DNA from: Phycisphaerales bacterium
GTDB lineage: Bacteria; Planctomycetota; Phycisphaerae; Phycisphaerales; UBA1924
Reading direction: 5' to 3'
Assembly (NCBI GenBank): GCA_020849615.1
Contig: JADLFW010000018.1
Coordinates: 55,722-119,721, forward strand
Length of the DNA: 64,000 nucleotides
The notes under the pieces were generated by a model, which made no database searches, was not told where the DNA came from, and saw only the letters and a program-made list of their open reading frames with translations. Shown piece by piece: positions 10,860 to 29,063 of the stretch. How positions within the stretch are numbered: position 1 is the first letter of the stretch; each line of letters starts with the position of its first letter. Made by a program: the position numbers and the translations under genes.

Positions 10860-12023
10860 TCAGCAGCCCGCGGCGTACGCTTCGAAGAAGAGCAGCCAGT
10901 CCGACTCATCCACGAATCCATCGTCGTTGAGGTCCGCATCGGCGTCCCCGGCTTCGTACAAGTTGATGAACAGCAGGTAGTCGGCGAAGTCAACGCGCCC
11001 ATCCTCATCCAGGTCGGCCGGGCAGGGCGGGCACGCGAAGCGCTTCAGCGGCACCGATGAGCCCCCGGCGTAGACCTCATCGTTGACGATCCCGAAGAGC
11101 CACGGGAAGCTCGTGAACCCCGGGAGCTCGATCCACTCCGTCCCGGTCCAGCGCACGGCCCACTTCGCGGGCTTGCCGCCCGCCTTTGTGAATGTGCCGC
11201 CGACCAGCAGCTGGCCGCGGTACTCGGCGAGCGCCGGGGCCACCGCGCCGTACGGGATCGTCTCGTGCACCAGCCCGCCGCCGATCCCGCGCCACGCCGA
11301 TCCGTCGAACCGCGCCACCATCGAGGTCGCCTCGGCTCCGCTGTGCTGCATCTGCCCCGCGGCGGCCAGGTCCCCGTTGTACGAGGCCAGCGCGAAGACC
11401 GCGCCGTCGAACCCGTCTCCGACCGGCGACCACTCTACGCCATCCCATTGTGCGATGTACCTGGCGGCCCGCCCGCCCGCCTGCGTGAAGTACCCGCCCG
11501 CGTAGAGCACATCATCATGAACGCGAAGGCAGATGACATCGTTGTTGCAGCCCGCTCCGAGCGGCTGCCACGTCGCGCCGTCCCACCGGGCGACGTTGTT
11601 GACCACCCTCCCATCCACCGTGATGAACTTGCCGCCGATGATCAGCTCGCCGCGGAAGTTCGCGAACATCGCCACCGAGACGCCGCCGCTCGGCGCAGTC
11701 ATGGAGGTCGTCATCGTGTACCACGCCGCGCCATCCCACCGGCGCACCCGGCCCGTCACCGTCCCGCACGCCCACAGCGAGCCTTCGTACTCGATCGTGT
11801 CATCGACGGCGCCGCCCGGGCCCGCGCCAAGCGTCCGCCAGGCCGAGCCGTCCCACCGCTTCAAAACCCCCTGCCCGGAGCCCCCGACGAGCAGTTGGCC
11901 CTGGTAGCTGCCGATGGCGCGAATGCCGCTGAACGGGTTGGTGACCGGCAGCGGCTCCGGCGTGCACTGCCCGTACGCGGAAGCGGCGATGACGGCGCAA
12001 ACAGCGATCCCCAGAACTCGCAT
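10860..12023 (-). CDS. Secreted beta-propeller repeat protein with C-terminal dockerin-like double EF-hand module ending in GC
   Basis: Signal peptide MRVLGIAVCAVIAASAYG. Repeats of the type A(R/Q)WDGxxWxxLGxG. C-terminus reads CPPCPADLDEDGRVDFADYLLFINLYEAGDADADLNDDGFVDESDWLLFFEAYAAGC. Confidence 0.85.
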   Translation of the reverse strand: MRVLGIAVCAVIAASAYGQCTPEPLPVTNPFSGIRAIGSYQGQLLVGGSGQGVLKRWDGSAWRTLGAGPGGAVDDTIEYEGSLWACGTVTGRVRRWDGAAWYTMTTSMTAPSGGVSVAMFANFRGELIIGGKFITVDGRVVNNVARWDGATWQPLGAGCNNDVICLRVHDDVLYAGGYFTQAGGRAARYIAQWDGVEWSPVGDGFDGAVFALASYNGDLAAAGQMQHSGAEATSMVARFDGSAWRGIGGGLVHETIPYGAVAPALAEYRGQLLVGGTFTKAGGKPAKWAVRWTGTEWIELPGFTSFPWLFGIVNDEVYAGGSSVPLKRFACPPCPADLDEDGRVDFADYLLFINLYEAGDADADLNDDGFVDESDWLLFFEAYAAGC

Positions 12024-12167
12024 GGCGGAACTCCTCGGTGCGCGGGCGGCATCACCCGCGAGACGTTGTTCCGCGCGGGCCTCCGGGGCGTTGCGTTCCG
12101 GTCATGCGCTGGTCGCAGTTAAGCCGGTTCAGGGTCCGTTCCCCGGGCGCACCACGCCCGGATCGGG

Positions 12168-13376
12168 TTACGTACACCCCGTTGAATAGGTCTCAAGGAA
12201 CAGCAGCCAGTCGGAGCGGTCCACCACGCCATCGCCCGTCACATCCGCGCCGGGTTCGCCCCCGCGGTACATGTCCAGAAACGCCAGGTAATCCGTGAAA
12301 TCCACCAGCCCGTCATCATCCACATCCGCGATGCAGGGCGGGCACGACCACCGGGCCCAGCCGTCGCCGCCCGTGCTCGAGACCGACTCACTCGAGATCA
12401 GTTCGTGGCGGAACACAGTCAGCGCCCGCGAGTTGCGCATCGACCCCTGGAGGGCGTGCCACGACTCCCCATCCCACCGCGCGATGCCATCCATCGGAAC
12501 CTCACCCGAGCGGTCGTAGACCCCCCCGGCGTACAGGTCGCCCCGGTACACCGCGAGGCCCGACACATACGAGGCGTACTCCCAGCCGGGCCGGGAGAGC
12601 AGGCCCTCTCCCATCGCGCGCCAGTCGGCGCCATCCCAGCGCGCGATGCAGTTCATGGGCCGCCCGGCCGACGAACGGAACAGCCCGGCGGCGATGAGCT
12701 CGTTGTTGTACACCGTCAGCGCCAGCACATCGCCTTCCAGCCCCGGGCCCAGCGACTGCCACTGCGAGCCATCCCATCGCGCGATGCAGTTCAGCGGCCG
12801 CGAGCCCGAGGCGGTGAAGCGTCCCGCCGCGATCAGTTCGTCGTTGTAGACGGCGAAGGCCCAGACCGAGCGGTCGAACCCATCGCCGAACGTGCGCCAC
12901 GAGGTTCCGTTCCACGCCGCGACGCGGTTGGCCGGCTTCCCTCCCGCGCTCGAGAACAGGCCCCCGACGATCAACTCCGAGCCGCGGGTGAACACGCCGT
13001 ACACGGAGGCGTTCACCCCGCCCCCAACGATCCGCCACCCCGTCCCGTTCCACGCCGCCAGCCCGCCCTGAAACGAGCCACCCGCGATGAGTTCGCCCTG
13101 GAACTCGCCCAGCGTGCTGACCGGGCCCGACAGCCCGGCTCCGTATTTCGCCCACGCCGAACCATCCCAGCGGGCGATCCTGGCGAACGAAGCGCCGCCG
13201 ATCCGGGTGAACGACCCGCCCGCGACCAGCTCGCCGTTGTGGACCGACAGCGCGACGGGTTGCTGGTCAAACCTCACATCGACGGGGATGCGCTGCGGAT
13301 CGCACTGGGCCCGGGCCGGGGAAGCGGCCGCGGCGAGCACGACCACCCCGGCGATAACGCGAGCGGATCGGCGCAT
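12168..13376 (-). CDS. Secreted beta-propeller repeat protein with dockerin-like C-terminal module (paralogue)
   Basis: Start at ATG 13376, preceded by AAGGGAG. Signal peptide MRRSARVIAGVVVLAAAASPARA. IARWDGxxW repeats. C-terminus reads CPPCIADVDDDGLVDFTDYLAFLDMYRGGEPGADVTGDGVVDRSDWLLFLETYSTGCT. Confidence 0.85.
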   Translation of the reverse strand: MRRSARVIAGVVVLAAAASPARAQCDPQRIPVDVRFDQQPVALSVHNGELVAGGSFTRIGGASFARIARWDGSAWAKYGAGLSGPVSTLGEFQGELIAGGSFQGGLAAWNGTGWRIVGGGVNASVYGVFTRGSELIVGGLFSSAGGKPANRVAAWNGTSWRTFGDGFDRSVWAFAVYNDELIAAGRFTASGSRPLNCIARWDGSQWQSLGPGLEGDVLALTVYNNELIAAGLFRSSAGRPMNCIARWDGADWRAMGEGLLSRPGWEYASYVSGLAVYRGDLYAGGVYDRSGEVPMDGIARWDGESWHALQGSMRNSRALTVFRHELISSESVSSTGGDGWARWSCPPCIADVDDDGLVDFTDYLAFLDMYRGGEPGADVTGDGVVDRSDWLLFLETYSTGCT

Positions 13377-13451
13377 GGGCAAGCTCCCTTTCGAGTTCCG
13401 GATCACAGCCTACCGCGCCTGTACGGCGTTCCACAGGGGAATCGGGCCCGT

Positions 13452-15413
13452 TTACTGAGGGGCCACATCCAGGCGGCGCTGGGCCTTGGCCTTGATCATC
13501 GCCTCCATCTGGGCCCGGTGCTCGGCGAGGCCCGTGGGCTCGGGGAAGATCTGGTCGAACGGGCGGCCGCCGTTCCTGGCGTCCTCATCCACCAGATCTT
13601 TGTACTGCTCCCTCAGGACGTCGTAGCCGAACAGCTTGAGGTCGTTGGGGGCGCCGGCGTAGAGCCGCTCGGCCTCATCCAGCGTGAGGAACGAGCAGAA
13701 CTGCGCGAAGAACAGGCCGGAGAAGACCCGGAAGTCGGGGTCCATCACATCCATGCGCGAGTAGTTGGGGTCGACGTTGGTCTTGCGCCGCTGCTCCTGC
13801 ATGAACCAGCGGTGCACGTTCTTGGCGTACTCGAACTGCGCGGTGAACAGCTCATCATCGCCCGCCAGCAGCCCGCTGGCGAACGCCCCCTGCAGCGCCC
13901 CCGCCACCTCGGAGACCGCCACGTACGGCGTGCTGAAGCGGTCGGCCAGCTCCGACTGGACGAACTCGTCGAGCGTCTGGCTGACCTTGGCCACCCGGTC
14001 GGGGTCGTTGGTGTTCTGGCCGCGGTAGTTGCGCACGACGGCGTAGTACCGCTCGGCCATCGCCCGCTGCCCGCGCCGGTAGAAGAACCGCACCACATCG
14101 CTGTAGAAGTTCTCGTACCCCGCCGCGTAGAGCCGGAACGGCCGGTCGGGCCGGTCGGCCCAGCTGCGGCTGACGACCTCGTTGATCACAAGGTCGTAGG
14201 TGTCGGCGAAGTGCGGATCGGTGACCGCCAGGTAGAACGTGTACGTGTTGCCGGAGGTCACCCAGTCGAAGTAGTTGAAGTACAGCTCGCCGGCGCGGTA
14301 CAGCTCCTGCACCGCCTGGATCGTGATGCGGTCGGTGTTGATGATGTCGTACTCGAGGCGGTTGTCGGTCGTGATCCTCGGCAGCGCCTCCTCCACGCCC
14401 TTGGCGCTCCAGTACACCGCGTGCGAGGCCGGGTGCCGCCAGTCCATCGGCCCGTACTTCTGCGTGTAGCGGATCATCCGCTGCGGCTCCATGTGGTAGA
14501 CATCCTCCAGCATGCGCCGCCGCGCGTAGGCCAGCAGCGCGGGCCAGGCCTTCGCGTACGCCGGATCGTCGACCAGCCGCACGAACGCCTCGCTCTTGGG
14601 CCCCATCGCCCCCTTCATCACGTTCCACCGCCCCGACGCCCGGGCCGTCCGCATCAGCTCGTGCCGCTGCAGCAGGCGCGGGCCCAGGTCCTCCTCCACT
14701 TGCGATTGCAGCGCCGCCACCAGGTCCCGCGCCGTCGGCTCGGCCTCGTACAGCCCCTCCAGCGTCTCGGGCGCCGTCGCGATCGGCTTCAGCCAGTCCA
14801 CGTACGCCGCGATCGCCTCATCGCGCCCGATCGAGATCTTCTGCACCGCGGGGGGCACACCCAGGATGCCCTGCCACTCCGCCGCCAGGGCCCGCTTGTA
14901 GTATGGGTTGGCATCGTCGGTGTACCCCTGGATCTTGTGCAGGAAGATCCACGCCAGCTCCTTGGGCAGAAGCATGTCTTTGGGGTTGGCGGGGATGCCC
15001 CGGTCGCGCAGCAGCCGCACGCCCGCGTTCACCCACTCCCATCGCTCGCGGTTGGTCGCCGTGCTGACCGAGATGTTGTACGCCATGTTCCAGGCGTGGA
15101 AGACCCACACCCGCGGGAAGCGGGGCTGCAGCGTCGTGATCGCGTCGGCCAGCTGCATCGCCTCGTGGAACTTGCCGGCCTCCTTCATCGCGTTGGCCCG
15201 CATCCACAGCATGTTCACGAACAAGCCGCGGAACGCCCCCATGGCGATGCCCATGGCGACCTCGGGCGGCTGGCCCTCGGTCGTCGTGTCGGCGTACGTC
15301 AGCTTGGCCCGGCTCGCCGAGGCCCCGATGCGCACCGCCAGCACGCCCGACACCGCGATGCACGCGGCGAGCACGAGGGCTGCGGCGACCTGGACCCAGG
15401 TGTCACGCCTCAC
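13452..15413 (-). CDS. Conserved membrane-anchored protein of unknown function
   Basis: ORF 13452..15452. The start was moved to GTG 15413, which follows GGAGG, because the first 13 codons run through a dispersed repeat. TM helix WVQVAAALVLAACIAVSGVLAV, then a large non-low-complexity domain with no motif I recognise. Confidence 0.65.
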   Translation of the reverse strand: MRRDTWVQVAAALVLAACIAVSGVLAVRIGASASRAKLTYADTTTEGQPPEVAMGIAMGAFRGLFVNMLWMRANAMKEAGKFHEAMQLADAITTLQPRFPRVWVFHAWNMAYNISVSTATNRERWEWVNAGVRLLRDRGIPANPKDMLLPKELAWIFLHKIQGYTDDANPYYKRALAAEWQGILGVPPAVQKISIGRDEAIAAYVDWLKPIATAPETLEGLYEAEPTARDLVAALQSQVEEDLGPRLLQRHELMRTARASGRWNVMKGAMGPKSEAFVRLVDDPAYAKAWPALLAYARRRMLEDVYHMEPQRMIRYTQKYGPMDWRHPASHAVYWSAKGVEEALPRITTDNRLEYDIINTDRITIQAVQELYRAGELYFNYFDWVTSGNTYTFYLAVTDPHFADTYDLVINEVVSRSWADRPDRPFRLYAAGYENFYSDVVRFFYRRGQRAMAERYYAVVRNYRGQNTNDPDRVAKVSQTLDEFVQSELADRFSTPYVAVSEVAGALQGAFASGLLAGDDELFTAQFEYAKNVHRWFMQEQRRKTNVDPNYSRMDVMDPDFRVFSGLFFAQFCSFLTLDEAERLYAGAPNDLKLFGYDVLREQYKDLVDEDARNGGRPFDQIFPEPTGLAEHRAQMEAMIKAKAQRRLDVAPQ

Positions 15414-15424
15414 GCCGGCCTCCG

Positions 15425-15548
15425 GCCAAATGGCCAAATGACAAAGTTCCACGTGGCAAATGAAGGCGGGAAGGGCGCAGCGGACTGCGCCATCGTCCCG
15501 GGCTCCCGCGCACCCTCATGTGCAATTTGGAAATGTGCCATTTGGTAA
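15425..15548 (-). repeat. Dispersed AT-rich TTTGCC-heptad element, copy i, plus hairpin
   Basis: Contains the exact 16-mer tggcaaatgaaggcgg (15454-15469), also present at 35042-35057 and 36807-36822 on the other strand. Hairpin ggcgcag-cgga-ctgcgcc at 15474-15491. A further AT-rich stretch gcaatttggaaatgtgccatttgg. Confidence 0.6.
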
Positions 15549-15549
15549 C

Positions 15550-17565
15550 TTACTTCCCCGAGTACGTCGCCAGCTCGCGCCGGCGGAAGATCACCCCCGC
15601 CGCGGCGAAGAAGAGCCCCGAGCCCAGCGCCAGCACCGCCAGCCCCTTGGCCACGCTCCCCCACGGCATCAGCCGCCCGTCCACCAGCCGGTCGACCGGG
15701 TTGAGCTCCCCGTACACCTTGAACACGTTGCCGATCAGCGTCGCGATGTTGGCGATGATGACCTTGTGCCAGATCACCGTCCGGTCGATGTCCTCCGTGC
15801 TGTAGTTCTCCAGCGCCTTGAGCAGGAAGTCCGAGCTCTCCGCGCACAGGAACACCCCGAAGGCCAGCAGGCACGCCACCGGGAAGCTCGCGAACGTCGC
15901 CGCGAAGATCCCCACCATCGCCATCAGCGCCAGCTTCACCCACAGCACCGCCGCCACCCGCAGGAAGTTCCACCGGAAGTCCCCCGCGCTGTACGACATC
16001 TGCAGCGAGCCGGGCTGGAACGAGATCGTCTCGGGGTTCTGGATCCCCCGCGGCACATCCGCGTTGGCCACCAGCACCGTCACCGAGCCCTTGTCGTCCA
16101 CCACATCCGTCAGCAGTTCGATGTTCTGGTACTGCCCCAGCACGCTCTCCCTCACCACCGGAGCGCCCCCGGAGAACGAGAACGTCAGCTTGAACACCTG
16201 GTCGGGCCGGTTCGACCCCGAATCGATCCGGTACCGGAACACGACCGGCCGAGTCTGACCCCGGGCCGGGCCCAGCCCGTCGAAGAAATACCGCCGCGAC
16301 TCGCCGGGCCCGATCGCCCGGTACGTCTGCTCGAACCCCTTCATCACCTCCACCGCCAGCTTGGCCCGCTTTGATTCGGAGATCTGCCCGTTGGGCAGGT
16401 CGGCGAACTCCGGGTTCACCTGCAGCTCCGACTCGATCCGCTGGTTGACGTTCAGCGCCACCTGCTCCATGTCCATCTCGGGCGGCGAGTTCTCGTACAC
16501 CACCCGCGCCGTCAGCACCTGCGTCTCCAGCAGGAACCGGTCCTCGCTGATCCCCTCCTCTCCCTCCGCCACGTACGCGCTGGTCTCCCCCAGCGCCGGG
16601 CCGCTCCGCAGGTACTCCGTGAACAGGAACACGCCCGCCGCCGACACCCCGATCAGCGCCGCCGCCAGCGCCGACACCCCGATCCACTTCCCCAGGATGT
16701 ACTGCCACGACGAGACCGGCTTGGTCATCGTCTGCCAGATCGTCCGGTCCCGCTGCTCGAAGGCCACCGTCGCCACCGAGAACGTCACCGTCAGGATCGC
16801 GATGATCCAGTACGCCCCCGCCGTCCCGTACTGCAGGAACGACTGCACCCGGTACCGCAGCGGCGCCGCCTCGTTCAGCGTCCCCGGCAGCACCGCCAGC
16901 CCCAGGATCAGCAGCATGATGAAGACCAGTGAGACCTTCATCCGCACCGCCTCGGTCAGCACGTTCTTGGCCACCGACATCACCGGGCCCGGCGCCGAGA
17001 GCCCCAGCCGCAGCAGCTGCATCAGCGTCGTGAACGCCGCCGTCAGCACCACCGTCCCCGCGATGAACCGCGCCATCCCGGGCATCCCCGCCCACGCCCC
17101 CAGCGGGTACGCCACCGCCCCCGCCGCCACCAGCAGCCCCAGGTACGTCAGCCCAAGCCCCAGCCACACCACCCCGATCGCCAGCCCCGCCGCGATCGCG
17201 ATCCCCGCGTTGACCCCCGCCAGCGACCGCCGGGCCGACAGGATGTCATCCACCGCCCGCTGCGTCGCCTCCAGCGCCGACTTCTCCTGCGCCTCCATCG
17301 CCGCCCGCCGCGCCGCTTCCGCCTGAGTCTCCGTCCCGTCCGCCGCCGCCCCCCCGGCCGCACCCGGCGCCTCCGCCGCCGTCTGGCCGCCCGAGACCGA
17401 TGCGGTCACCGGCGGCGCGGGCCGCTCCTCCGCCGAGTGCTTCACGAGCGCGTACGACAGCATCCCCCCCAGCGCCGCCAGGATGATCACCCCCGTCGCG
17501 ATCAGCTTGAACAGCCGCGACTCCTGCACCCGGTCCAGCCGCGCCAGTTGGTCACGCATGCTCAC
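15550..17565 (-). CDS. ABC-2-type transporter permease-like protein with a large extracytoplasmic insert
   Basis: 671 aa. Several TM helices on both sides of a soluble domain of about 250 aa. The start overlaps the stop of the upstream ATPase (GTGA at 17562-17565). Confidence 0.75.
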   Translation of the reverse strand: MSMRDQLARLDRVQESRLFKLIATGVIILAALGGMLSYALVKHSAEERPAPPVTASVSGGQTAAEAPGAAGGAAADGTETQAEAARRAAMEAQEKSALEATQRAVDDILSARRSLAGVNAGIAIAAGLAIGVVWLGLGLTYLGLLVAAGAVAYPLGAWAGMPGMARFIAGTVVLTAAFTTLMQLLRLGLSAPGPVMSVAKNVLTEAVRMKVSLVFIMLLILGLAVLPGTLNEAAPLRYRVQSFLQYGTAGAYWIIAILTVTFSVATVAFEQRDRTIWQTMTKPVSSWQYILGKWIGVSALAAALIGVSAAGVFLFTEYLRSGPALGETSAYVAEGEEGISEDRFLLETQVLTARVVYENSPPEMDMEQVALNVNQRIESELQVNPEFADLPNGQISESKRAKLAVEVMKGFEQTYRAIGPGESRRYFFDGLGPARGQTRPVVFRYRIDSGSNRPDQVFKLTFSFSGGAPVVRESVLGQYQNIELLTDVVDDKGSVTVLVANADVPRGIQNPETISFQPGSLQMSYSAGDFRWNFLRVAAVLWVKLALMAMVGIFAATFASFPVACLLAFGVFLCAESSDFLLKALENYSTEDIDRTVIWHKVIIANIATLIGNVFKVYGELNPVDRLVDGRLMPWGSVAKGLAVLALGSGLFFAAAGVIFRRRELATYSGK

Positions 17566-18917
17566 GACCCGCGCTCCGAACCACGTTCCGACCCACTCCC
17601 GCCGGGCCTCGGCGTCGCCTCAGGTGATACGCCCTTCCCCTGCTCGCTGTGCGGGCCTCCCGATCCGGAAGCCCCCGATCCCCCCCCCAGCAGCGAGTTG
17701 ATCACCGACTCATCCACCTCCGGCGGCTTCTGGAACGGTTGCGCCGGGCCCGGCTTCTGCGGACGGGCCTCCGCGGCCCCGGGCGCTCCCGCGGCCGGTC
17801 GCTCCGCCCCCTCCACAAGCGACCCGATCACCGACTCATCCACGCCCTTGGGCGCCGCCGGGCCGCTCATCTCCACCGCCGCCACCTTCGCCGCAACGGG
17901 CGTCGCCGCCTCGCTCTTCACCAGCCGGTCGATCAGCGCCTCACCGTGGTCTTGCTCGGCCCGCAGGAACGACGCCGTCTGGCCGCCCGAGGTCGCGCCC
18001 GAGGTGTGCGCGTGCTCCGCGCGAGCCCGGTCAACGATCTGCAGGAACAGGTCCTCGAGCTTCTGCCGCGGCCGGCTCACCCGCAGGATCGTCTTGCTCC
18101 CCCCCGACCGCGCCCGGATCACCCGGTCGATCTCCGCGACCGTCTCCTCATCGAGCGTGTCGGCCTCGATCGACGTCGCGTTCTGGCTCTCCAGCAGCGA
18201 CTCGCACGTCCCCTCGGCCCGGCGCTTGCCCCCGTACAGGATCACCATCCGGTCGACGCAGTCCTCGACATCCGCCAGCAGGTGGCTCGACAGCAGCACC
18301 GTCTTGCCGCGCCGGCCCAGCTCGATGATCAGGTCCTTGATCTGCCGCGTGCCGATCGGGTCCAGCCCCGTCGTCGGCTCATCCAGGATCAGGAAATCAG
18401 GGTCGTTGATCAGCGCCTGCGCGATCCCGATGCGCCGCTGCATGCCCTTGGAGTACTCGCGCACGGGCCGGAACTGCGCCCCCGCCAGCCCGATCATGTC
18501 GAGCAGCTCATCCGTCCGCCGCACACGCGTCTTGCGGTCAAGATGGAACAGCTTCCCGTAGTAGTCCAGCGTCTCCCGCGCGTTCAGGAACGGGTAGAGA
18601 TACGACTCCTCGGGCAGGTATCCCACCCGCGACTTCATCGCGACATCCGTCGGCGGCTTGCCGAACACCGCCACCCGCCCCGAGGTCGGCCGCAGCAGCC
18701 CCAGGATCATCTTGATCGTTGTGCTCTTGCCCGAGCCGTTCGGGCCCAGCAGCCCGAAGATCTCCCGCCGCTCGATCCGGAAGCTCAGCCCATCCACCGC
18801 GCGGGCCCGGTCCCGCATCCAGAAGTCCTTGAAGATCTTCGTCAGCTGCTGGCACTCCACCACCGGTGTGCCCTGGCTTCCCACGCTCGTGGCGGACAAG
18901 TTCGTGACCATGTTCAT
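17562..18917 (-). CDS. ABC transporter ATP-binding protein with a roughly 150-aa low-complexity C-terminal tail
   Basis: Walker A GPNGSGKST, Q-loop, signature YSKGMQRRIGIAQAL, Walker B FLILDEPTTGLD and H-loop SSHLL. Confidence 0.9.
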   Translation of the reverse strand: MNMVTNLSATSVGSQGTPVVECQQLTKIFKDFWMRDRARAVDGLSFRIERREIFGLLGPNGSGKSTTIKMILGLLRPTSGRVAVFGKPPTDVAMKSRVGYLPEESYLYPFLNARETLDYYGKLFHLDRKTRVRRTDELLDMIGLAGAQFRPVREYSKGMQRRIGIAQALINDPDFLILDEPTTGLDPIGTRQIKDLIIELGRRGKTVLLSSHLLADVEDCVDRMVILYGGKRRAEGTCESLLESQNATSIEADTLDEETVAEIDRVIRARSGGSKTILRVSRPRQKLEDLFLQIVDRARAEHAHTSGATSGGQTASFLRAEQDHGEALIDRLVKSEAATPVAAKVAAVEMSGPAAPKGVDESVIGSLVEGAERPAAGAPGAAEARPQKPGPAQPFQKPPEVDESVINSLLGGGSGASGSGGPHSEQGKGVSPEATPRPGGSGSERGSERGS

Positions 18918-18976
18918 CCCCGGGCCGCCGGGCCCGCGTTAGCCGCACTCCCCATCCCGCCGCCAAACCCCGCGGC

Positions 18977-20392
18977 CTATCGCGGCGTCGCCTGCAGCAT
19001 GCCCGTGTCCGTCTGGAACCGGGCCGCCTTCCGGGCCCGCTCCGAGGCCTCCGTCGCGATCTGCGCCTCCCGCAGCTTCTGGGCCCGGTCCAGCTCCTTC
19101 AGCACATCGGGGTCGGGGTTGATCAGCAGCTCCAGGCTGCTCGTGCCCTCCGGCAGCCACATCATCTGCACGCTGTCGCGGTCCATCAGCTTGGTCAGGG
19201 CTTCCTTCCACTCGCGCTCGATCATCACCAGCGGGCTGCCCTCATACAGCTCGAGCTTGGCCCGGAACGCCGTCGCGTCCGCCTGGGCCCGGTTCACGAT
19301 GTCGGCCCGGTACTGCCGCGCATCGTTGAGCAGCGCGGTGACCTCGCCCGAGGCCCGCGGCGCATCGGCGCCGGCCCGGCCCTCGAAGAGCGCGTTGACC
19401 TTCGCCAGCGCCGCGGTCTTGCCCGCGGCATCGCCGCTGTCCACGGCCCGCTCGTACTCGTCGATCCCCGCCAGCAGCGCATCCACCGCCGCCCCCGCCT
19501 TGGCGTTCAGCACGCGCTGCCGCTCGGTCTCGGCCTCTTCGCGCAGCTTGTTGGCGTTGGCCGCCGCGGCCTGCACGGCGTTGAACTTGTCGCGCAGGAA
19601 CAGGGGCGGCATCTTCTGGTCCAGCGCCAGCTGGTCGATCACGATCCCGCTGCCCGTCGCCGTCAGCATCCGCTGGGCGATCTCCTTGGCCCGCGACGCC
19701 ACGCTCCCCGCATCCCCCGTCGACTGCTTCAAGAGGTCGTCGATCGTCACCTGGGCCGCTGCGTGCACGATCCCCCGCTGCACCGCCGCCATCACCAGCT
19801 TGCGCTCATCCTCGGTGTAGATGTTCTGCGCGTACAGCTCCGGCTTCTCCCGCCGGTACACCACCGACCACTGCGTGTGCGCGATGCTGTTATCCGCCGT
19901 CAGCAGCGACCCGTCGTTGGCCGGGTTCAGCGAGCTCGACCGCGGGATCTGGTCGATCGGCCGCCCCCGGGCCGACTCCTCCACGAACGGCCAGAACGAG
20001 CGGTCGATGCTCAGGTTCACCGCCCCCGTGCTCACCTTCACCAGCTCGCCCACCGGGTACGGGAAGCTGAAGCGGAACCCGGGGTCCAGCCGGGCCGACT
20101 CCACCTTGCCGAACATCAGCCGGATCCCCTGCTCACCCTCCTTCACCGACTGGAACCCGCTGAACGCGAACAGCACCGCCAGCACCACCATCGCCAGCTG
20201 CAGGATCCGGAACGTGATCCGGATCGCCTCCGAGAGCGACTGGTGCGCCGGGTCCAGCAGCGAAGCCTCATCCACCGCCGAGCGCGGGCCGCCCTCGCCG
20301 CCGGCGCCCCGCGCCGGGCCGCCGCCCGCCCCGCCGGTCAACAGCGGATCATCCGGGCCGCGCCGCACACTCTGGAAGTGGGGGGCGCTCAT
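18977..20392 (-). CDS. SPFH/band-7 protein (HflK/HflC-like)
   Basis: Single TM ILQLAMVVLAVLFAFSGF. SPFH core GEQGIRLMFGKV...LDPGFRFSFPYPVGELVKVS. Long C-terminal coiled coil. The start overlaps the upstream stop (ATGA at 20389-20392). Confidence 0.8.
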   Translation of the reverse strand: MSAPHFQSVRRGPDDPLLTGGAGGGPARGAGGEGGPRSAVDEASLLDPAHQSLSEAIRITFRILQLAMVVLAVLFAFSGFQSVKEGEQGIRLMFGKVESARLDPGFRFSFPYPVGELVKVSTGAVNLSIDRSFWPFVEESARGRPIDQIPRSSSLNPANDGSLLTADNSIAHTQWSVVYRREKPELYAQNIYTEDERKLVMAAVQRGIVHAAAQVTIDDLLKQSTGDAGSVASRAKEIAQRMLTATGSGIVIDQLALDQKMPPLFLRDKFNAVQAAAANANKLREEAETERQRVLNAKAGAAVDALLAGIDEYERAVDSGDAAGKTAALAKVNALFEGRAGADAPRASGEVTALLNDARQYRADIVNRAQADATAFRAKLELYEGSPLVMIEREWKEALTKLMDRDSVQMMWLPEGTSSLELLINPDPDVLKELDRAQKLREAQIATEASERARKAARFQTDTGMLQATPR

Positions 20393-21405
20393 CGCGGCGC
20401 CCCCTCCGACCGCGGCTGGCCCGCCGGCGTCTCACCGGCCTTCGGCTGCGCGGGCCGGGCCGGCCCGGGCTCGGTCGGCCCGCCGCCCTGCCCCAGCGCC
20501 GACGGGTCCACCAGCCCCAGCTCCGACGCCGTCATCACGAACGTCGCGCGCTTGGACATCACATCCTTGAAGAACTCCATCTTGCGCAGGAACACCGCCA
20601 GCTGCGGGTTGGAATCCAGCTTCTTGATGTACTCCGCCGCCTCGTTGTCGCCCCGCGACTTGATCTCCTGCGCCAGCGTCTGCGCGAACGTCTCGATCTT
20701 GCGGGCGTTGGATTCGGCCGTCGAGCGGATCGTCTGGGCCACGCTGGCCCCCTTGCTCTCCAGCTCCTTGGCCAGCTTGTCCCGCGTCTGCCCCATCGCG
20801 TCGAACACCGCCGTCGTCGTCGCCTCGGGCAGCACGATCCGGCTCACGCCGACATCCATGACCTCCAGGCCCCAGTTCGCCAGCGTGCCCGCCTGCTCCC
20901 CGCCCGTGTTCATCGTCGCCAGCACCTGGCCCTCCAGGTCGCCCAGCTTCGTGCCCGCGGGGTCGGGCGTGAACAGCTCGCTCAGCCGGAACTTGCTCGT
21001 CGACGCCAGCGCGCTCGACAGGCTCTTGCGCAGGCTCTCCTCCGCGCTGCGGTAATGGTCCACCGACCGCTCCCCCGCGTTGCTGAAGCGCTGGAAGAAC
21101 TTCAGCGGGTCCGTCACCCGCCACGTGCAGAACGCCTCCACGATGATCTGGCGGTCATCGGCCGTCTGCTGCGTCTCGCTCCGGGCCTGCAAAATCCGCA
21201 GCCGCGTGTCGTACTTCGTCACGCTCTGGATCGGGTAGGGCCACTTGAAGCGCAGCCCGGCGTCCTTCTTCACGTCCTCCGGGCCCGCCTTCCCGAACGT
21301 CGTCAGCACCGCCGCCTCCGTGAACCGCACCGTGTAGGTGACGGTGAACGAGAGCAGCGCCGCCAGGAACACCGCCGTGATCACGATCAAGACCAGTCGT
21401 CGCAC
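20389..21405 (-). CDS. SPFH/band-7 protein (HflC-like)
   Basis: N-terminal TM LVLIVITAVFLAALLSFTV. SPFH core reads TEAAVLTTFGKA...GLRFKWPYPIQSVTKYDTRLRIL...IIVEAFCTWRVTDPLKFF. Confidence 0.8.
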   Translation of the reverse strand: MRRLVLIVITAVFLAALLSFTVTYTVRFTEAAVLTTFGKAGPEDVKKDAGLRFKWPYPIQSVTKYDTRLRILQARSETQQTADDRQIIVEAFCTWRVTDPLKFFQRFSNAGERSVDHYRSAEESLRKSLSSALASTSKFRLSELFTPDPAGTKLGDLEGQVLATMNTGGEQAGTLANWGLEVMDVGVSRIVLPEATTTAVFDAMGQTRDKLAKELESKGASVAQTIRSTAESNARKIETFAQTLAQEIKSRGDNEAAEYIKKLDSNPQLAVFLRKMEFFKDVMSKRATFVMTASELGLVDPSALGQGGGPTEPGPARPAQPKAGETPAGQPRSEGAPR

Positions 21406-21453
21406 GCCAACGCTCCTGCTAGAGAATCCGACACGCCTTCTCGTCTCGCCGTC

Positions 21454-23577
21454 TCACTGGTTCTCCGGCGTCTTCCCCACGTTGGGGTCAAAGATAGCCG
21501 CCCCGGACTGCCTGTCCTGCAGCTCGGCCCGGATCTTCAGGTCCGCCACCGCATCGCTCGTGATGTACAGCCGCGACTTGGCGAAGGCTTCCTTCAGCGC
21601 CTCGAAGTACAGCGACGCCTTGTACACCTCCGGCGAGGCCTCGTACGCCGCCAGCTGCCCCTCGTACCGCGCGGCCCGCCCGCGCTCCCGCATGTGCCGG
21701 GCCCAGCGCTCGGCCCGGGCCTCGGCGATCGTCGCCGCCGCCCGCCCGCCCGCCGTCTCGATCAGCTGCTGGATCTTGCGCTCCTGGGCCCGGATCTGCT
21801 CGGAAGTCGCCGGGCTCGCCCCGCCGCGGCCATCCCGCAGCGCCGTCAAGGCGTCGATCTCCGCCACGATCCGGTTCGCCAGGTCCACGCTGCCCACCAC
21901 CCGCGTCAGCGTCTCGATCTCATCCGCGTTGGCCGCCTCGATCTTGGCCTGACGGTTCTGCTCCGCCTGCACCACCCGCTCGAAGTTCGCCGCCACCTTC
22001 TGGGGCGGGTGTGGACGCATCACCCCCAGCGCCAGGATCTCGACGCCCGCCCCCCGCGGCTTGCCGTCCGGGCCCGGGTTCATCTCCGCGAACGCCGCCT
22101 CGATCCGCTTCCGCAGCTCGGCCGCGATCTCGACCTTCCGCCCGCCGATCACATCATCCAGCGAAGCCCCCGAGAAGTACCGCACGATCTCCCGCTGGGC
22201 CACCGACCGCAGCAGGTCATCCCGCAGCTCGGGCGCCGCCAGCTGGTCGAAGAGCATCACATCGCTCACCGCGTACTGCAGCGGGATCTCGACCGCCACC
22301 ATCGCCAGCCCGGCGACCGCATCCCGTCCCGATGATTCCGCCCCCGCCCGCGACGGCTGCACCAGCTGGTACATCTCCTCGCGCGCGTGCTCGTTGGTCC
22401 ACAGGATCGGCCCCTCCGCGGTCGGCGGCGGCGTCGCCAGGTCGATCGTCCGAACGCCGGTCGCGGTGTACCCGGCCACGCTGCGCCGGCCCGTCCGTGG
22501 ATCGGTCCTCAGCAGCACCGGCGACTCCACGGTGTCGATGGGCCACGGCGCCTTGACGTGCAGGCCCGGGCCCAGCTCCTTGCCGATCGGCCGCCCGAAC
22601 CGCAGCACGATCGCCCGCTGGTGCGGCTGCACCACCGTCAGCGCGGTCAACGCCCAGATGATGCCCAGCCCCAGCAGCAGGAGCAGCAGCACCGACCGGC
22701 TCAGCAGCCGGTAGAACCACCCCGAGGTGACGTTGAACCCCAGCTGGTAGTTGATCGCATCGCTGATCGACTTGGCGATCCGGTCCGGCGCCGCCGCGAA
22801 CCCCAGGAACCGCGAGTCGAACGCGGGCCGGGGCAGCTCGCCCGGCTTCCGCGGCCGGTACAGGTCCAGCACGAAGTTCAGGAAGATCTCGGCGCCCGCC
22901 GCGATCATGTAGATCGGGAACGCGACCTGCAGGTACCGCAGCACCACATCAGGCCCGGCGATGTCGATGAACTGCCCGACCGCCATCGCCAGGCCCAGCA
23001 GCGCTGCGCCCACCGCCGCGGCCGAGCCGGCCCGCAGGTTGGCCCACACCTTCTGCTTGGCCATCCCCGAGACGTACCGCGCGAACACGAAGCCCACGAA
23101 CGCCAGGCTCAGCCCGATCGCGATGGCCCAGCCGCGCTGCGCGGGCTCGCCGAAGCGGTCCGGCGACAGGAGGTCCCGCGCCTGCGAGAGCCGCCACAGC
23201 CCCAGCCCGATCATCGCCGCGCCGATCGCCAGGCTCACCGCGGGGACCGCGAAGCGGTGCAGCATCTGCACCCGCCGGGCCGCCACGCGGAAATCCCCCG
23301 CCTGACCCTCGAAGACGCTCGACCCCGCCCCCTCCGCCTCCGCCAGACGCTCCGCCTCCAGCGCCTCCACCCGCTCCCGCCGGTGCTGATCAAAGACGAT
23401 CACCAGCGTCAGCCAGATCGGCACCCCCAGCGCCACCGCCAGGCACGCCGTCACCGCCGCGTGGTCGTGCGCCAGCACCCCGTACACCAGCAGCGCCACC
23501 GCCAGCACCGTCTGGATCACCAGCCCCAGAAGGCTCACGCTCGTCGCACGCCGGTAGGTCAGATAGTCGGCTTTCAT
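21454..23577 (-). CDS. Polytopic membrane protein fused to an SPFH/band-7 domain
   Basis: Start at ATG 23577 (MKADYLTYRR). About 330 aa with multiple TM helices. Then QRAIVLRFGRPIGKELGPGLHVKAPWPIDTV and a C-terminal coiled coil. Confidence 0.8.
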   Translation of the reverse strand: MKADYLTYRRATSVSLLGLVIQTVLAVALLVYGVLAHDHAAVTACLAVALGVPIWLTLVIVFDQHRRERVEALEAERLAEAEGAGSSVFEGQAGDFRVAARRVQMLHRFAVPAVSLAIGAAMIGLGLWRLSQARDLLSPDRFGEPAQRGWAIAIGLSLAFVGFVFARYVSGMAKQKVWANLRAGSAAAVGAALLGLAMAVGQFIDIAGPDVVLRYLQVAFPIYMIAAGAEIFLNFVLDLYRPRKPGELPRPAFDSRFLGFAAAPDRIAKSISDAINYQLGFNVTSGWFYRLLSRSVLLLLLLGLGIIWALTALTVVQPHQRAIVLRFGRPIGKELGPGLHVKAPWPIDTVESPVLLRTDPRTGRRSVAGYTATGVRTIDLATPPPTAEGPILWTNEHAREEMYQLVQPSRAGAESSGRDAVAGLAMVAVEIPLQYAVSDVMLFDQLAAPELRDDLLRSVAQREIVRYFSGASLDDVIGGRKVEIAAELRKRIEAAFAEMNPGPDGKPRGAGVEILALGVMRPHPPQKVAANFERVVQAEQNRQAKIEAANADEIETLTRVVGSVDLANRIVAEIDALTALRDGRGGASPATSEQIRAQERKIQQLIETAGGRAAATIAEARAERWARHMRERGRAARYEGQLAAYEASPEVYKASLYFEALKEAFAKSRLYITSDAVADLKIRAELQDRQSGAAIFDPNVGKTPENQ

Positions 23578-24016
23578 GCTCTGTCCCAATGCGCCCGCCC
23601 GCGGGCACAACAATCCCCACTCGGTCGGTCCCCTCGCCGCCGGGCCCGGGCCTTCCCCGTTCGCCGGTTGTCAAACCGGTCGTCGCCGCCCGGGGCTGCA
23701 TCCCCTCCGCGACCGCCGACCGCTCGCTCTCGTCCTCCGGGGCGGGCGAACGCCCGCTTCGAACCGGCAAGACCTTTCCCGGGCACCGAACCCGCCTCCC
23801 GCGGGGGCGTATTGTGTCCACCCCCGCACGGGCTGTCCACCGACCTCGCGCCCCCTCACTCCTCAAAGGTGTGGGGGCGCACCTTCGGCGGTTTGATGTA
23901 CGGACGCCGCGAACCTATGTTCGTCGCCGCCCGAAGAACTCTTCGCCGGGCCTTCTCTCCCCGGCGCCCCTCCGGAGCCCGCACCGCGGCCCCGGGCGCC
24001 CCCGCAGCTTCCGGAC

Positions 24017-25363
24017 ATGCTCACCCAGATCCTCTCCATCGCCCGCAACACCTTCGTCGAGGCCCTGCGCCAGCCCGTCTTCTTCGTGCTGGTCATGCTC
24101 TCCGGGGTCATCCAGCTCTTCAACGTCTGGGGCTCCGCCTTCAGCATGGGGATGCAGGAATCCTCCGAAGTCCAGGGCGATGACAAGATCATGCTCGATG
24201 TCGGCATGGGCACCATCTTCGTCCTGGGCACCCTCCTGGCCGCCTTCATCGCCACCGCCGTCGTCAGCCGCGAGATCGAGAACAAGACCGTCCTCACCGT
24301 CGTCAGCAAGCCGGTCGCCCGCTGGGTCATGATCGTCGGCAAATACGCCGGCATCGCCGGCGCCATCCTCGTCGCCGTCCTCACCATGCTCCTTTTTCTC
24401 TACTTTTCCATCCGCCACGGCGTCATGAGCACCGCCAGCGACAACCTCGACCAGCCCGTCCTGGTCTTTTCTCTCTCCGCCGTCTTCCTTGCCATCCTCA
24501 TCGCCGGATGGTGCAACTTCTTCTACGGCTGGAACTTCCCGCAGACCTCCGTTGTCCTCATGCTCCCCCTGCTTCTGGTGGGCTACCTCCTCGTCCTCTC
24601 CCTCAGCAAGGAGTGGAAGTGGCAGCCCATCACCAAGGACTTCAAGCCCCAGATCACCCTCGCCTGCACGTGCCTCGTCATGGCCATCATGGTCCTGACG
24701 GCCGCCGCCACGGCGGCCTCCACGCGCCTCGGCCAGGTCATGACCATCGTCGTCTGCGCGGGCCTCTTCATCGCCACCCTGCTCACCGACCACTTCATCG
24801 GGCGCTACGCCTTCCGCAACCAGACCGTCGCCGTCATCAAGTCCGCCGCCCCGGCCGACCCCGCCCGCACCACCTTCCAGCAGGCCGGCGACACCTTCAC
24901 CGTCGAACTCGCCGGGCCGCCCCGCGTCGACATCCAGCCCGGCTTCCCGTTCTACTACGGGCCCAACCCCGGCGGCTTCGCCCTCGCCGTCCCACCCTTC
25001 GCCGCTCCTACGCCGGAACGATCCCGCGAATCGGGGATGCAGGGCCCGCCGGCGGTCATCGTCACCCAGGTCCGCGATCTCAAGCTCACCATCCGCAACA
25101 TCGGCGAGCGTCCCGTGCCCGTCGATCGCGCCCCCGAAGCGGGTGACTTCGTCTTCGCGAAGCCGACCAGCGTCAGCATTCCGGCCCTGGCGATCTGGGC
25201 CGCCATCCCCAACATGCACCACTACTGGCTCCTGGATGCCATCACCCAGACCCAGCGCATCCCCCCGGCCCACGTCGCCAAGGTCGCCGGCTACGCCCTT
25301 GCCCAGATCACCGGGCTTCTCTCGATCGCCGTATTGCTGTTCCAGAAGCGGGATGTGGGCTGA
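24017..25363 (+). CDS. ABC-2-type permease-like membrane protein with a C-terminal soluble extension
   Basis: MLTQILSIARNTFVEALRQPVFFVLVML...REIENKTVLTVVSKPVARWVMIVGKY is typical of ABC-2/NosY-like permeases. Divergent from the SPFH operon. Confidence 0.75.
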   Translation: MLTQILSIARNTFVEALRQPVFFVLVMLSGVIQLFNVWGSAFSMGMQESSEVQGDDKIMLDVGMGTIFVLGTLLAAFIATAVVSREIENKTVLTVVSKPVARWVMIVGKYAGIAGAILVAVLTMLLFLYFSIRHGVMSTASDNLDQPVLVFSLSAVFLAILIAGWCNFFYGWNFPQTSVVLMLPLLLVGYLLVLSLSKEWKWQPITKDFKPQITLACTCLVMAIMVLTAAATAASTRLGQVMTIVVCAGLFIATLLTDHFIGRYAFRNQTVAVIKSAAPADPARTTFQQAGDTFTVELAGPPRVDIQPGFPFYYGPNPGGFALAVPPFAAPTPERSRESGMQGPPAVIVTQVRDLKLTIRNIGERPVPVDRAPEAGDFVFAKPTSVSIPALAIWAAIPNMHHYWLLDAITQTQRIPPAHVAKVAGYALAQITGLLSIAVLLFQKRDVG

Positions 25364-25536
25364 TCCCCTCAGCGGTCGGGCCGGGCCACAGTGGCGGGCC
25401 GGCCCGGCGAACCCCGGGTGGCCCGGGCCCGCCCATCACGTCTAGAATTTGTTCTGCACCCCCGCGATGATTTCTCATCGATCCCGGCCCGGTGCTCCGA
25501 TCCGCCTCTGCCGTGTCCGTTTCTGGAGGTTGTCCA

Positions 25537-25839
25537 ATGGCCAAGTCACTGATCGATGAGTCGATGTCGGGGGTCGGGGTCAAGGGCCCGGGCGGCCGCC
25601 CCGGCAAGTCCGAGGGCGCAGCCAAGGCATCCGCCGACCGCATCAAGCTCATCGTCGCGATCGTGGTGCTCACCATCGGGCTGGGCCTGATCGGCTACAG
25701 CCAGGGGCTCTTTGACTTCCTCAAGCCCAAGCCGCCGGACATCACCAAGACCTTCACGCCCGAGCAGCAGGAGGCGTACCGGAAGGCCGATGAGGCGAAG
25801 GAAAAGCTCAACAAGGAAATCCCGCCCAGCGGGTCGTGA
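25537..25839 (+). CDS. Small single-pass membrane protein
   Basis: GGAGG at 25525-25529, seven nt before ATG 25537. Sequence MAKSLIDES..., TM IKLIVAIVVLTIGLGLIGY, charged C-terminus. Confidence 0.6.
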   Translation: MAKSLIDESMSGVGVKGPGGRPGKSEGAAKASADRIKLIVAIVVLTIGLGLIGYSQGLFDFLKPKPPDITKTFTPEQQEAYRKADEAKEKLNKEIPPSGS

Positions 25840-25904
25840 GCGCGAAGACCCCCCGCGCCCGTTTGCACTGATCCGAGGCCGTCTCGTTTCGGCGAGCTCG
25901 ATGC

Positions 25905-26345
25905 TCAGGCCGGGCTGAACGTCGCGCCATCCAGCACATCGCCGCTCACGAACTGGCCGATCTCGAACTGGCCCGTCGACTGCCGCGCATCGCCCAGCTT
26001 GCAGTGGATCGGCGCACCGGCGTTGATCGTGATCGTGTTGGTGCCGGTGTCGATCGCCACGATGTGGCCCTGCACGCGCCGCGGACGGCCCGCCACCGGC
26101 TCGATGTAGCGCCCGCCCGTCGTCACCGTGTCGATGCGCCGGGCCTGGGCATCGATCCGGCCGACGATGCGCTTGCCGACCGGCGTCGAGATCGGCCCGG
26201 CGGGCCGGAGGTGCAGCTCGTAGCTGGTGTCGGGGATGGTGAGCTTGATGTAGCCCGGCTTGGTGGCCGTGGCCTCAACGACCGCGGCCAGCACGCCGCG
26301 CGCGAGCTCGGGGCTGATGCGGGTGGTGGGGGAGGGCGTGATCAT
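25905..26345 (-). CDS. Hypothetical protein (146 aa)
   Basis: Start at ATG 26345 (MITPSPTTRISPELARGVL). The composition is not low-complexity and no motif is recognised. It is the last gene of the co-directional dockerin array. Confidence 0.55.
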   Translation of the reverse strand: MITPSPTTRISPELARGVLAAVVEATATKPGYIKLTIPDTSYELHLRPAGPISTPVGKRIVGRIDAQARRIDTVTTGGRYIEPVAGRPRRVQGHIVAIDTGTNTITINAGAPIHCKLGDARQSTGQFEIGQFVSGDVLDGATFSPA

Positions 26346-26467
26346 GGCGCAAGCATAGAGAGGGCAGGGGGAGAGAGAACAGTCGCGGCCCGCCCGGAGT
26401 TGATGGCGCGGGGCGGGCCGCTCGAGGAGTAGACGGGTTTGGTGCCGCAGGATCGCGACCTTGGAAC

Positions 26468-27628: not shown

Positions 27629-27720
27629 GATGGTCTCCTCGGGGCCCGGTCCTTCGCGCGGCCGCCCGCCGGGCCCGTTCCGGGCGGTCGGCATTGTCGG
27701 GGTTGGGCGCGGTCGTGTGT

Positions 27721-28896: not shown

Positions 28897-29063
28897 GTCG
28901 CTCCTCCTTTCGCGATGGTGCGGAGAACGGCGTGCCGGCCATCGCGGGGAACTCACCGGTCCGGGCCCGGCCCGCCCCGATGCCCCCGGGGAGCAATGGC
29001 CCGCCCACGCCGCTGAGCGGGGGCGCGCCGCTGCTTGTCATCGCGCGATGCAGGTCTGCACAC

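Follow-up and report, generated by a model that had tools for sequence, protein, structure and literature searches.

A conserved Planctomycetota gene cluster combining three HflK/HflC-like SPFH genes with the genes of an ABC-2 transporter

Phycisphaerales bacterium GCA_020849615.1 (Planctomycetota) carries on contig JADLFW010000018.1 a seven-gene cluster in which three consecutive genes for SPFH proteins of the HflK/HflC type lie among the genes of an ABC-2 transporter. The DNA analysed is a 64,000-nt window of this contig with a G+C content of ~70%, and window coordinates are used throughout unless another contig or locus is named. The cluster consists of a divergent permease gene (permease B), followed on the opposite strand by the genes for SPFH-K1, SPFH-C, SPFH-K2, an ABC ATPase, a second permease (permease A) and a helical-repeat (solenoid) protein. 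Gene content, the homologies of the products, conservation of the gene order and the correlated presence of an ATPase tail together suggest that these genes encode one conserved inner-membrane module, in which the HflK/C-type trio is dedicated to, or works with, a NosFY-like two-permease ABC-2 machine and the solenoid, with zinc/copper handling as the probable theme; we would give this reading a probability of roughly 0.55. The metal part, taken alone, is more tentative and is held at a little short of even odds. Complex formation, the orientation of the domains in the membrane and the role in metals are what we infer from these observations.

Organization and conservation of the cluster

The six minus-strand genes had been recognized in an initial annotation of the window, and the open reading frames and their translations give the same lengths, gaps and overlaps. 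Downstream of a divergent control region of 439 nt (23578-24016) they are, in order, the genes for SPFH-K1 (21454-23577; 707 aa, a polytopic Band_7 fusion), SPFH-C (20389-21405; 338 aa, Band_7, HflC-like), SPFH-K2 (18977-20392; 471 aa, Band_7, HflK-like), the ABC ATPase (17562-18917; 451 aa, ABC_tran), permease A (15550-17565; 671 aa, ABC2_membrane_2) and the anchored helical-repeat protein (13452-15413; 653 aa). The unit had been taken to consist of these six genes; permease B (24017-25363 on the plus strand; 448 aa, ABC2_membrane_2) was missed and makes seven. The SPFH-C/SPFH-K2 junction is an ATGA overlap (20389-20392) and the ATPase/permease A junction a GTGA overlap (17562-17565), both of 4 nt, and the other intergenic gaps measure 48, 59 (SPFH-K2/ABC ATPase) and 136 nt. 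A scan of the coding strand found no terminator-like sites between the cluster genes. SPFH-K1 starts with the ATG at 23577, where the alignments of its homologues begin, which makes a TTG 12 codons upstream an unlikely start; the 653-aa protein starts with the GTG at 15413, immediately preceded by GGAGG, and its relatives are typically 651-656 aa long.

All six minus-strand genes, with order and strand unchanged, were found in 16 of 16 genomes (17-kb regions from six Phycisphaerales families), and a permease B homologue flanks SPFH-K1 in all 16 of these loci and in every other SPFH-linked locus. The full order (7- and then 1+2+3+4+5+6+) is present in 58 of 80 further Phycisphaerales loci, the other 22 being cut by contig ends, with no exceptions; the solenoid gene was found in 41 of 41 relatives. 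Conservation of the neighbourhood, which the initial annotation had named as a check on its proposal, is therefore borne out: the order is invariant in Phycisphaerales and is found again in 13 or more other family-level lineages of Planctomycetota, as well as in a metagenome-assembled genome (MAG) labelled Verrucomicrobia, where three Band_7 genes, a P-type ATPase gene and an ABC_tran gene stand in series. It is kept from 89% down to ~25-30% protein identity and across Planctomycetota classes. On a metagenomic contig of 3.5 Mb the series reads permease B, three Band_7 genes, a P-type ATPase, four small genes, a long-tailed ABC ATPase and a permease.

Sampling of 251 Planctomycetota genomes separates the components of the cluster. 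The N-terminal core of the solenoid family is present in 186 of them, and it comes immediately after the orthologous ATPase and ABC-2 permease in 18 of the 20 loci sampled, so that the ATPase, permease and solenoid genes form a phylum-wide unit. The SPFH-K1 profile is matched at E <1e-30 in 78 of the 251, and full-length SPFH-K1 orthologues that include its six-helix membrane domain are found in ~46. Where SPFH-K1 and the solenoid gene share a contig they lie ≤10 kb apart in 25 of 27 genomes, these 25 representing at least 13 families, and are distant in the remaining 2; in ~19 genomes, mostly fragmented MAGs, the two are on different contigs. In three genomes (G242, G258 and G047) the solenoid gene is found elsewhere and the SPFH trio still precedes the orthologous ABC ATPase. 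Two loci (L115 and L125) have permease B and no SPFH genes, and there permease B abuts the ATPase gene; in SPFH-containing loci the trio sits between the two. To judge from these arrangements, the SPFH trio is, in a subset of loci, in effect inserted inside the transporter gene set.

An ATPase tail that tracks the SPFH genes

The ABC ATPase (ABC_tran, 109 bits) comprises a nucleotide-binding domain, a C-terminal regulatory domain and a disordered tail of ~150 aa, and its motif-bearing C-terminal segment is encoded at 17565-18020 on the minus strand. The tail carries the motif TSGATSGGQTASFL (17958-18005, minus strand) and two copies of VDESVI(G/N)SL (17814-17843 and 17688-17717, minus strand), which occur in the window protein as VDESVIGSLV and VDESVINSLL. 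Two forms of the protein exist amongst its orthologues. In long-form ATPases (382-486 aa) the regulatory domain is followed by a TSGAxxGGxxAxFL motif, by a linker rich in Pro and Ala and, usually, by two amphipathic motifs with a consensus near D-x-S-[VL]-[IL]-x-x-L-[LIVT], whereas short-form ATPases (282-337 aa) have neither the tail motifs nor the linker.

The distribution of the two forms follows that of the SPFH genes. All 87 SPFH-adjacent loci encode a tail of ≥101 aa that bears the motif at least once, and 86 of them encode two or more copies; in contrast, all 11 loci that truly lack SPFH genes encode tails of only 5-51 aa with no motif. Four more loci with a tail and no visible SPFH genes are all contig-end truncations and stand outside this comparison. 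Mapped onto a maximum-likelihood phylogeny of the ATPase core, the long-tail state requires a minimum of two changes on well-supported branches and may have changed as many as four times; one long-tailed ATPase (L126) is the sister of a short-tailed one (L115) with support of 98/93. It is this correlated change that gives the best indirect evidence of a link, functional and probably also physical, between SPFH proteins and transporter.

The SPFH trio and the case for FtsH

Three consecutive SPFH/band-7 proteins, one HflC-like and one HflK-like, had been proposed from the translations, and the Pfam and NCBIfam matches agree, giving an HflK-, an HflC- and an HflK-like protein in series. Band_7 (PF01145, cut-off 23.6 bits) is matched by all three, at 57.4 bits for SPFH-K1, 75.3 for SPFH-C and 48.3 for SPFH-K2. 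Their best-matching NCBIfam families are hflK and hflC, at 79.2, 97.2 and 98.8 bits, respectively, all of which lie under the equivalog cut-offs (TIGR01933 hflK, 159.4 bits; TIGR01932 hflC, 134.4 bits); the SPFH-C match is to TIGR01932 and extends across nearly the full length of the protein, which has a single N-terminal transmembrane helix, and the SPFH-K2 match is to TIGR01933. A profile of the SPFH-K1 family matches E. coli HflK (7vhp_E) at 1.9e-37 and HflC at 3e-14. SPFH-K1 and SPFH-K2 share 22% identity across ~400 aa and the three proteins are only ~22% identical to one another; on this sequence divergence the paralogues are ancient. The alignments of all three proteins extend through the C-terminal region of HflK or HflC, and by homology K and C subunits would be expected to alternate in a capped ring or cage; hydropathy and charge, from which alone the orientation is taken, predict all three SPFH domains to face the periplasm.

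SPFH-K1 has a composite layout: an N-terminal domain of six transmembrane helices with conserved cytoplasmic helices (residues 1-300) is followed by transmembrane helix 7, an HflK-like SPFH domain and a coiled-coil and cap region. From hydropathy and charge the protein is estimated to have seven transmembrane helices, with the N-terminus inside and the SPFH domain outside. An AlphaFold2 (AF2) model of residues 1-322, made with an alignment of 26 sequences, has a mean predicted local distance difference test score (pLDDT) of 85 and a predicted template-modelling score (pTM) of 0.77, and consists of six long membrane helices and two cytoplasmic helical segments, then transmembrane helix 7. The conserved cytoplasmic segments read QHRLERxEALEAE... 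and YRPRxxGExPRPAFDSR...NYQFGF, and E230 is the sole invariant intramembrane charge in the family alignment. When the model was compared with the PDB using Foldseek, cation diffusion facilitator (CDF) zinc transporters (ZnT3, SLC30A10, ZnT7 and YiiP) filled nearly all of the top 13 places. SPFH-K2, for its part, has a 54-aa cytoplasmic N-tail with a conserved juxtamembrane motif, LDPAxQSLxEALRxxF. A divergent SPFH trio with unlinked ABC genes was also seen at locus L131 (G051:C24:45437-49916; 755, 438 and 454 aa), where the first member matches SPFH-K1 over the SPFH part only and may carry a different N-terminal membrane domain.

To our knowledge a single bacterial HflK/C-type cage has been solved, with FtsH as its client, and the alternative that survives best is that the trio is an HflK/HflC equivalent caging an FtsH encoded elsewhere, the adjacency to ABC genes then reflecting shared envelope-stress regulation or quality control of transporters by FtsH. 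Genome-wide profile counts on the 4.57-Mb assembly (47 contigs; G000) bear on this. Exactly three PF01145 genes are present, all of them in the cluster, and these are the only HflK/C-type genes of the genome. The window contains neither an FtsH nor an NfeD gene, as the initial annotation had stated; the single FtsH gene of the genome is on contig C13 and the NfeD genes are on C7. There, an operon at ~25490-29531 (L138:2490-6531) encodes two NfeD proteins, a long NfeD1b (816 aa) and a short form (166 aa), together with a FloA-type flotillin, which matches PF12127 (2.8e-145) and is missed by PF01145, so that Band_7 counts under-report the SPFH proteins of this genome. That the FloA-type gene has NfeD partners of its own, that one FtsH gene exists alongside a single HflK/C-type set, that hflK and hflC are the best-matching families and that the nearest relatives of solved structure are E. 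coli HflK and HflC of the FtsH complex all speak for FtsH as the client.

We nevertheless regard this alternative as unlikely. All three proteins score far under the equivalog cut-offs, and the trio lies beside transporter genes, never beside ftsH, in the loci examined. If FtsH is general in the Planctomycetota it must work without the trio in most of them, given that the SPFH-K1 profile is found in only 78 of 251 genomes and full-length orthologues in ~46; moreover, the ATPase tail tracks the presence of the SPFH genes. The initial annotation had pointed to the ABC components, which it took to be co-transcribed, as candidate clients rather than FtsH, and this proposal gains indirect support because the trio lies between two permease genes and the ATPase tail co-occurs with the SPFH genes; FtsH, encoded elsewhere, is a possible partner too. 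The FtsH and transporter readings are not mutually exclusive, and a mixed model in which FtsH also resides in the cage is compatible with the data.

Two permeases, an anchored solenoid and the case for an exporter

Both permeases score above the cut-off of ABC2_membrane_2 (PF12679, 27.2 bits), permease A at 33.5 bits and permease B at 46.1 bits. Permease A has an N-terminal extension of four transmembrane helices, followed by an ABC-2 (NosY-like) core. It had been described as an ABC-2 permease with an ectodomain of about 250 aa; both the family and the ectodomain hold, and the predicted periplasmic insert is smaller, at ~213 aa (residues 320-532, window 15970-16608). NosY is the sole solved permease relative found by sequence: the permease A family profile matches 7o0y_D at 2.6e-5, over profile positions 83-205 only, which is the N-terminal third of the core. 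Permease B has an extracytoplasmic insert of ~160 aa (residues 263-421) in close relatives only, and a sequence search of the PDB with it gave nothing useful. The two permeases are paralogues whose homology spans the membrane core in full (hhalign 99.4%, E 2.5e-21), and this makes a heterodimeric A/B membrane part, served by the single ATPase gene, plausible.

The control region between permease B and SPFH-K1 contains two sigma-70-like promoter candidates, both of which are consensus matches only. For permease B, TTGATG (23893-23898) and TATGTT (23916-23921) are spaced by 17 nt on the plus strand, ~96 nt upstream of the gene, and 10-mers of this element recur in 8-13 of 75 orthologous intergenic regions; for the SPFH/ABC operon, TGGACA and CACAAT are spaced by 17 nt on the minus strand (23839-23811). 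The permease B candidate (23893-23921) also overlaps a CGAAC-CTAT-GTTCG palindrome. A Fur/Zur-type operator was sought in the 75 orthologous divergent intergenic regions and none was evident, the only words in common being those that fit the permease B promoter candidate.

The 653-aa protein consists of one N-terminal transmembrane helix, an amphipathic helix and an all-alpha solenoid resembling tetratricopeptide repeats (TPR), with an AF2 model of pLDDT 80.6 and pTM 0.79. Profile assignment, which the initial annotation had called for, placed the 671-aa permease and failed for this protein, whose one Pfam match (TPR_14, 21 bits against a cut-off of 23.5) is sub-threshold. Foldseek returned generic TPR superhelices only (TM-score ≤0.2) and no specific relative, a sequence search of the PDB with the family found no relative, and the named relatives are all called 'hypothetical protein'. 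The most conserved block of the family is QPRFPxVWxFHAWNMAYNIS. The charge pattern of the family consensus favours a solenoid that is probably periplasmic, the possible alternative being a helical hairpin with a cytoplasmic solenoid. The TPR-like domain was considered as a binder of the ATPase tail motifs and set aside, since that charge pattern would place it on the other side of the membrane and since L115 and L125 have a long solenoid yet no tail motif. One record named 'Cyanobacteria bacterium CYA' (L063, RHKP01000002.1) carries a typical Phycisphaerales solenoid gene (48% identity) and is probably mis-binned or mislabelled. Directly downstream of the solenoid gene, two beta-propeller genes (Rax2/DUF5122-like; 10860-13406, minus strand), one with a dockerin-like tail, are lineage-specific and outside the conserved module.

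The nature of the ABC genes leaves room for a second alternative, in which they encode a GldAFG-, Wzm/Wzt- or Lol-like envelope exporter that carries lipid, lipoprotein or polysaccharide. On this view the TPR-like protein guides the cargo, the SPFH proteins contribute no more than a membrane microdomain, and the association with metals is incidental and belongs to other lineages. Polymer export systems such as those of AlgK, BcsC and PelB typically include TPR scaffolds. The best NCBIfam matches of the ATPase are drrA (201 bits) and GldA (191.6 bits against a cut-off of 402.6), and the only one of permease A is GldF (19.8 bits against 288.5); the occurrence of the ATPase/permease/solenoid unit in 186 of 251 genomes, without SPFH or P1B-type ATPase genes, argues for a core role independent of both. 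These drrA and Gld matches are, however, far below their cut-offs, and the conserved neighbourhood holds no GldG, glycosyltransferase or outer-membrane export gene, so that membership of the GldAFG system is rejected. The only solved sequence relative is NosY, and genes for metal pumps, like His-rich tails, appear repeatedly within the clusters of other lineages. An exporter of this kind is in our judgement quite improbable.

Metal-related features of related clusters

A gene for a P1B ATPase of ~650 aa lies between SPFH-K2 and the ABC ATPase in four loci (L126, L129, L130 and L132), where the products score 539-569 bits against TIGR01525 (cut-off 346) and are above the cut-off of the Cd-family model too; the same gene occupies the same position in L113, L116, L139 and L140. 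These ATPases have no N-terminal CxxC domain and several have His-rich N-termini; their motifs are xCP[CSG] in transmembrane helix 4 and LH[NL]xG..V[IV]FNSARLVRFGEE in transmembrane helix 6. In L140, which comes from a metagenomic genome, four small genes, including cupin and Fic-domain genes, stand between the P1B ATPase and the ABC ATPase (L140:16099-17619), an insertion which indicates that the module tolerates insertions at this junction. A second metal-related feature is found in SPFH-K2, whose orthologues in five families (f4, f5, f63, f46 and f8) have His-rich cytoplasmic N-tails of HD or HG repeats before the LDPAxQSLxEALR motif. His/Asp-repeat tails of SPFH-K2, with up to ~25 His, were observed in L022, L024-L026, L109, L110, L126 and L130, and the family to which the window belongs is without them. 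Further hints at metals are the CDF zinc transporters that head the structural matches of the SPFH-K1 N-domain, the permease relative NosY, which comes from a machine for copper-site assembly, and the zinc response of the HflK/C-family genes of Pseudomonas aeruginosa described below.

The window genome itself encodes five P1B paralogues. The one closest to the cluster type (41% identity) is on contig C36 (C36:102140-104032, minus strand; L137:6057-8246), and it has the His-rich N-terminus HPHAHPHNHAHDHPHDHPHVHDH, ACPS in transmembrane helix 4, a related motif in transmembrane helix 6 and no CxxC domain. A double thioredoxin-like gene follows it and no SPFH gene is nearby; it is possibly a relocated partner of the module.

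A model for the module and its weaknesses

In the mechanism that we propose, the SPFH ring would fence or organise a patch of membrane that holds the transporter, and the SPFH assembly would be functionally, and probably physically, coupled to the ATPase, permeases A and B and the anchored alpha-solenoid. The disordered tail of the ATPase, through its two short amphipathic motifs, may tether the transporter to cytoplasmic parts of the SPFH proteins, either the loops of SPFH-K1 or the N-tail of SPFH-K2. The transporter would act in the manner of NosDFY, via its periplasmic domains and the solenoid, and not as a simple pump, and the physiological theme would likely be transition-metal (zinc/copper) handling. 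A stronger version of the model sees an HflK/C-type cage in Planctomycetota and relatives as dedicated transporter housing, which encloses an ABC-2 mechanotransducer and elsewhere an HmtA-type P1B pump, holds the ATPase by its tail and thereby creates a fenced periplasmic zinc/copper nano-compartment; at this strength the proposal is doubtful.

Several points weigh against the model. Conserved adjacency can reflect co-regulation alone, the correlation between tail and SPFH genes rests on few independent transitions, and in one family (f19) a divergent SPFH trio is unlinked from ABC genes. The trio, as the sole HflK/C-type genes of its genome, may also or instead serve FtsH. The nearest published system by description is the hmtA/PaFlo5-7 locus of Pseudomonas aeruginosa, compared below; orthology of the trio to its PA2437-2439 is not to be assumed, and a paFlo5-7 deletion in P. 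aeruginosa had mild phenotypes only (PMC13086221). The metal part is the more exposed, for the metal hints are thin in this window: an HmtA-like P1B ATPase adjoining the trio is absent from the window cluster, and the window SPFH-K2 has no His-rich N-tail. The CDF matches of the SPFH-K1 N-domain are weak (E ≥ 0.04, TM-score 0.45-0.50), the domain has no match to Pfam Cation_efflux, and its alignment contains no HxxxD/DxxxD transport site, the canonical CDF metal residues being absent. On these sequence grounds the domain is not assigned to the CDF family, and the likeness would be a weak fold resemblance, at most a degenerate or convergent fold.

That the gene order is a lineage-specific accident of unrelated neighbouring operons, with internal promoters that the 59-nt and 136-nt gaps could hold, is effectively refuted by synteny that persists down to ~25-30% identity, across classes and into the Verrucomicrobia-labelled MAG, as it is by the two 4-nt overlaps and the lack of a terminator-like site between the genes.

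In the stronger version of the model, the transporter would be the first client other than a protease to be defined for a bacterial HflK/C-type cage. The locus points to transporters, not only FtsH, as likely scaffold partners of bacterial SPFH proteins. It offers a concrete, genetically defined candidate client set, namely an ABC-2 transporter with an SPFH-tracking tail motif and, in sister lineages, a metal pump, and makes directly testable the question of what other prokaryotic SPFH paralogues enclose or organise. It also gives context to two abundant families that are without functional annotation, the 653-aa solenoid and the six-helix domain of SPFH-K1.

Comparison with known systems

The HflK/HflC-FtsH complex of E. 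coli (SPFH3; 7vhp, 7wi3, 9cz1/9cz2, 9paw) resembles the trio in having adjacent, translationally coupled HflK- and HflC-like genes, and in the architecture of the products, with an N-terminal transmembrane anchor, a periplasm-facing Band_7 domain (here predicted) and a coiled-coil and cap region. Unlike the E. coli system, the window has three paralogues in the order K1-C-K2 rather than two, SPFH-K1 carries the 300-aa domain of six transmembrane helices, the scores fall below the equivalog cut-offs, and the genes lie inside a transporter set and not beside hflX/hfq or ftsH. With the CDFs (YiiP and the ZnT family) the SPFH-K1 N-domain shares, in its AF2 model, a six-helix bundle, and it differs from them in lacking, besides the HxxxD/DxxxD site, a cytoplasmic C-terminal domain.

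The machine that assembles the copper site in the Nos system, NosDFY(L) (7o0y etc.), is alike in combining ABC2_membrane_2 permeases and one ATPase gene with a dedicated extracytoplasmic partner, and could plausibly serve as a model of how a transporter operates through movement of its periplasmic parts. The window has two different permeases in place of a homodimer and a large insert in permease A, and its partner is an alpha-solenoid and not a beta-helix. The cluster is not considered to belong to the Nos system itself, as Pfam found no match to NosD, NosL or NosZ in the cluster or its flanks and the NosY match is confined to positions 83-205.

The SPFH subfamilies and the NfeD operons have been defined previously, in a text from which the words 'ABC' and 'transporter' are absent (Hinderhofer et al. 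2009; PMC2636767), and no paper was found on an SPFH and ABC-2 pairing. The initial annotation held that no described system matches; this stands for the ABC-2 pairing and likewise the tail motif and the SPFH-K1 fusion domain, none of which was found described, and does not stand for a three-paralogue SPFH operon beside a transporter, since the combination of trio and pump is already listed for Pseudomonas (P. aeruginosa hmtA; PMC4542158, PMC13086221). The P. aeruginosa PA2434-PA2439 cluster encodes HmtA, a P1B importer of zinc and copper, together with PA2437, PA2438 and PA2439 of the HflC/HflK families; expression of PA2437-2439 and hmtA increases 5.6- to 14.4-fold when zinc is depleted, and a weak Zur site is present in the cluster (PMC4542158). 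Zur has been shown to bind the PA2439 promoter (PMC8531726). A three-SPFH operon, PaFlo5-7 (PA14_33070/33080/33110), is found in a similar genomic context in a small number of species from different classes, and the paper that describes it does not mention HmtA or any transporter (PMC13086221). The equation of PA14_33070-33110 with PA2437-2439 is drawn here and is stated in neither paper. A tblastn search of plasmids with SPFH-K1 for annotated proteobacterial versions returned only a Rhizobium HflK.

The hmtA locus differs from the window cluster in two respects: the window cluster is without a P1B ATPase gene, its closest paralogue being on another contig, and the partners in the window are an ABC ATPase, two ABC-2 permeases and a solenoid, none of which has been reported for Pseudomonas. 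The two are alike in having three consecutive HflK/HflC-family genes adjoining a transporter gene, and related Planctomycetota and the Verrucomicrobia-labelled MAG have, directly after the trio, a gene for a P1B ATPase that lacks an N-terminal metal-binding domain. The comparison connects a zinc-regulated locus of Pseudomonas that has been little studied with a module found widely among bacteria of the Planctomycetes-Verrucomicrobia-Chlamydiae (PVC) group.

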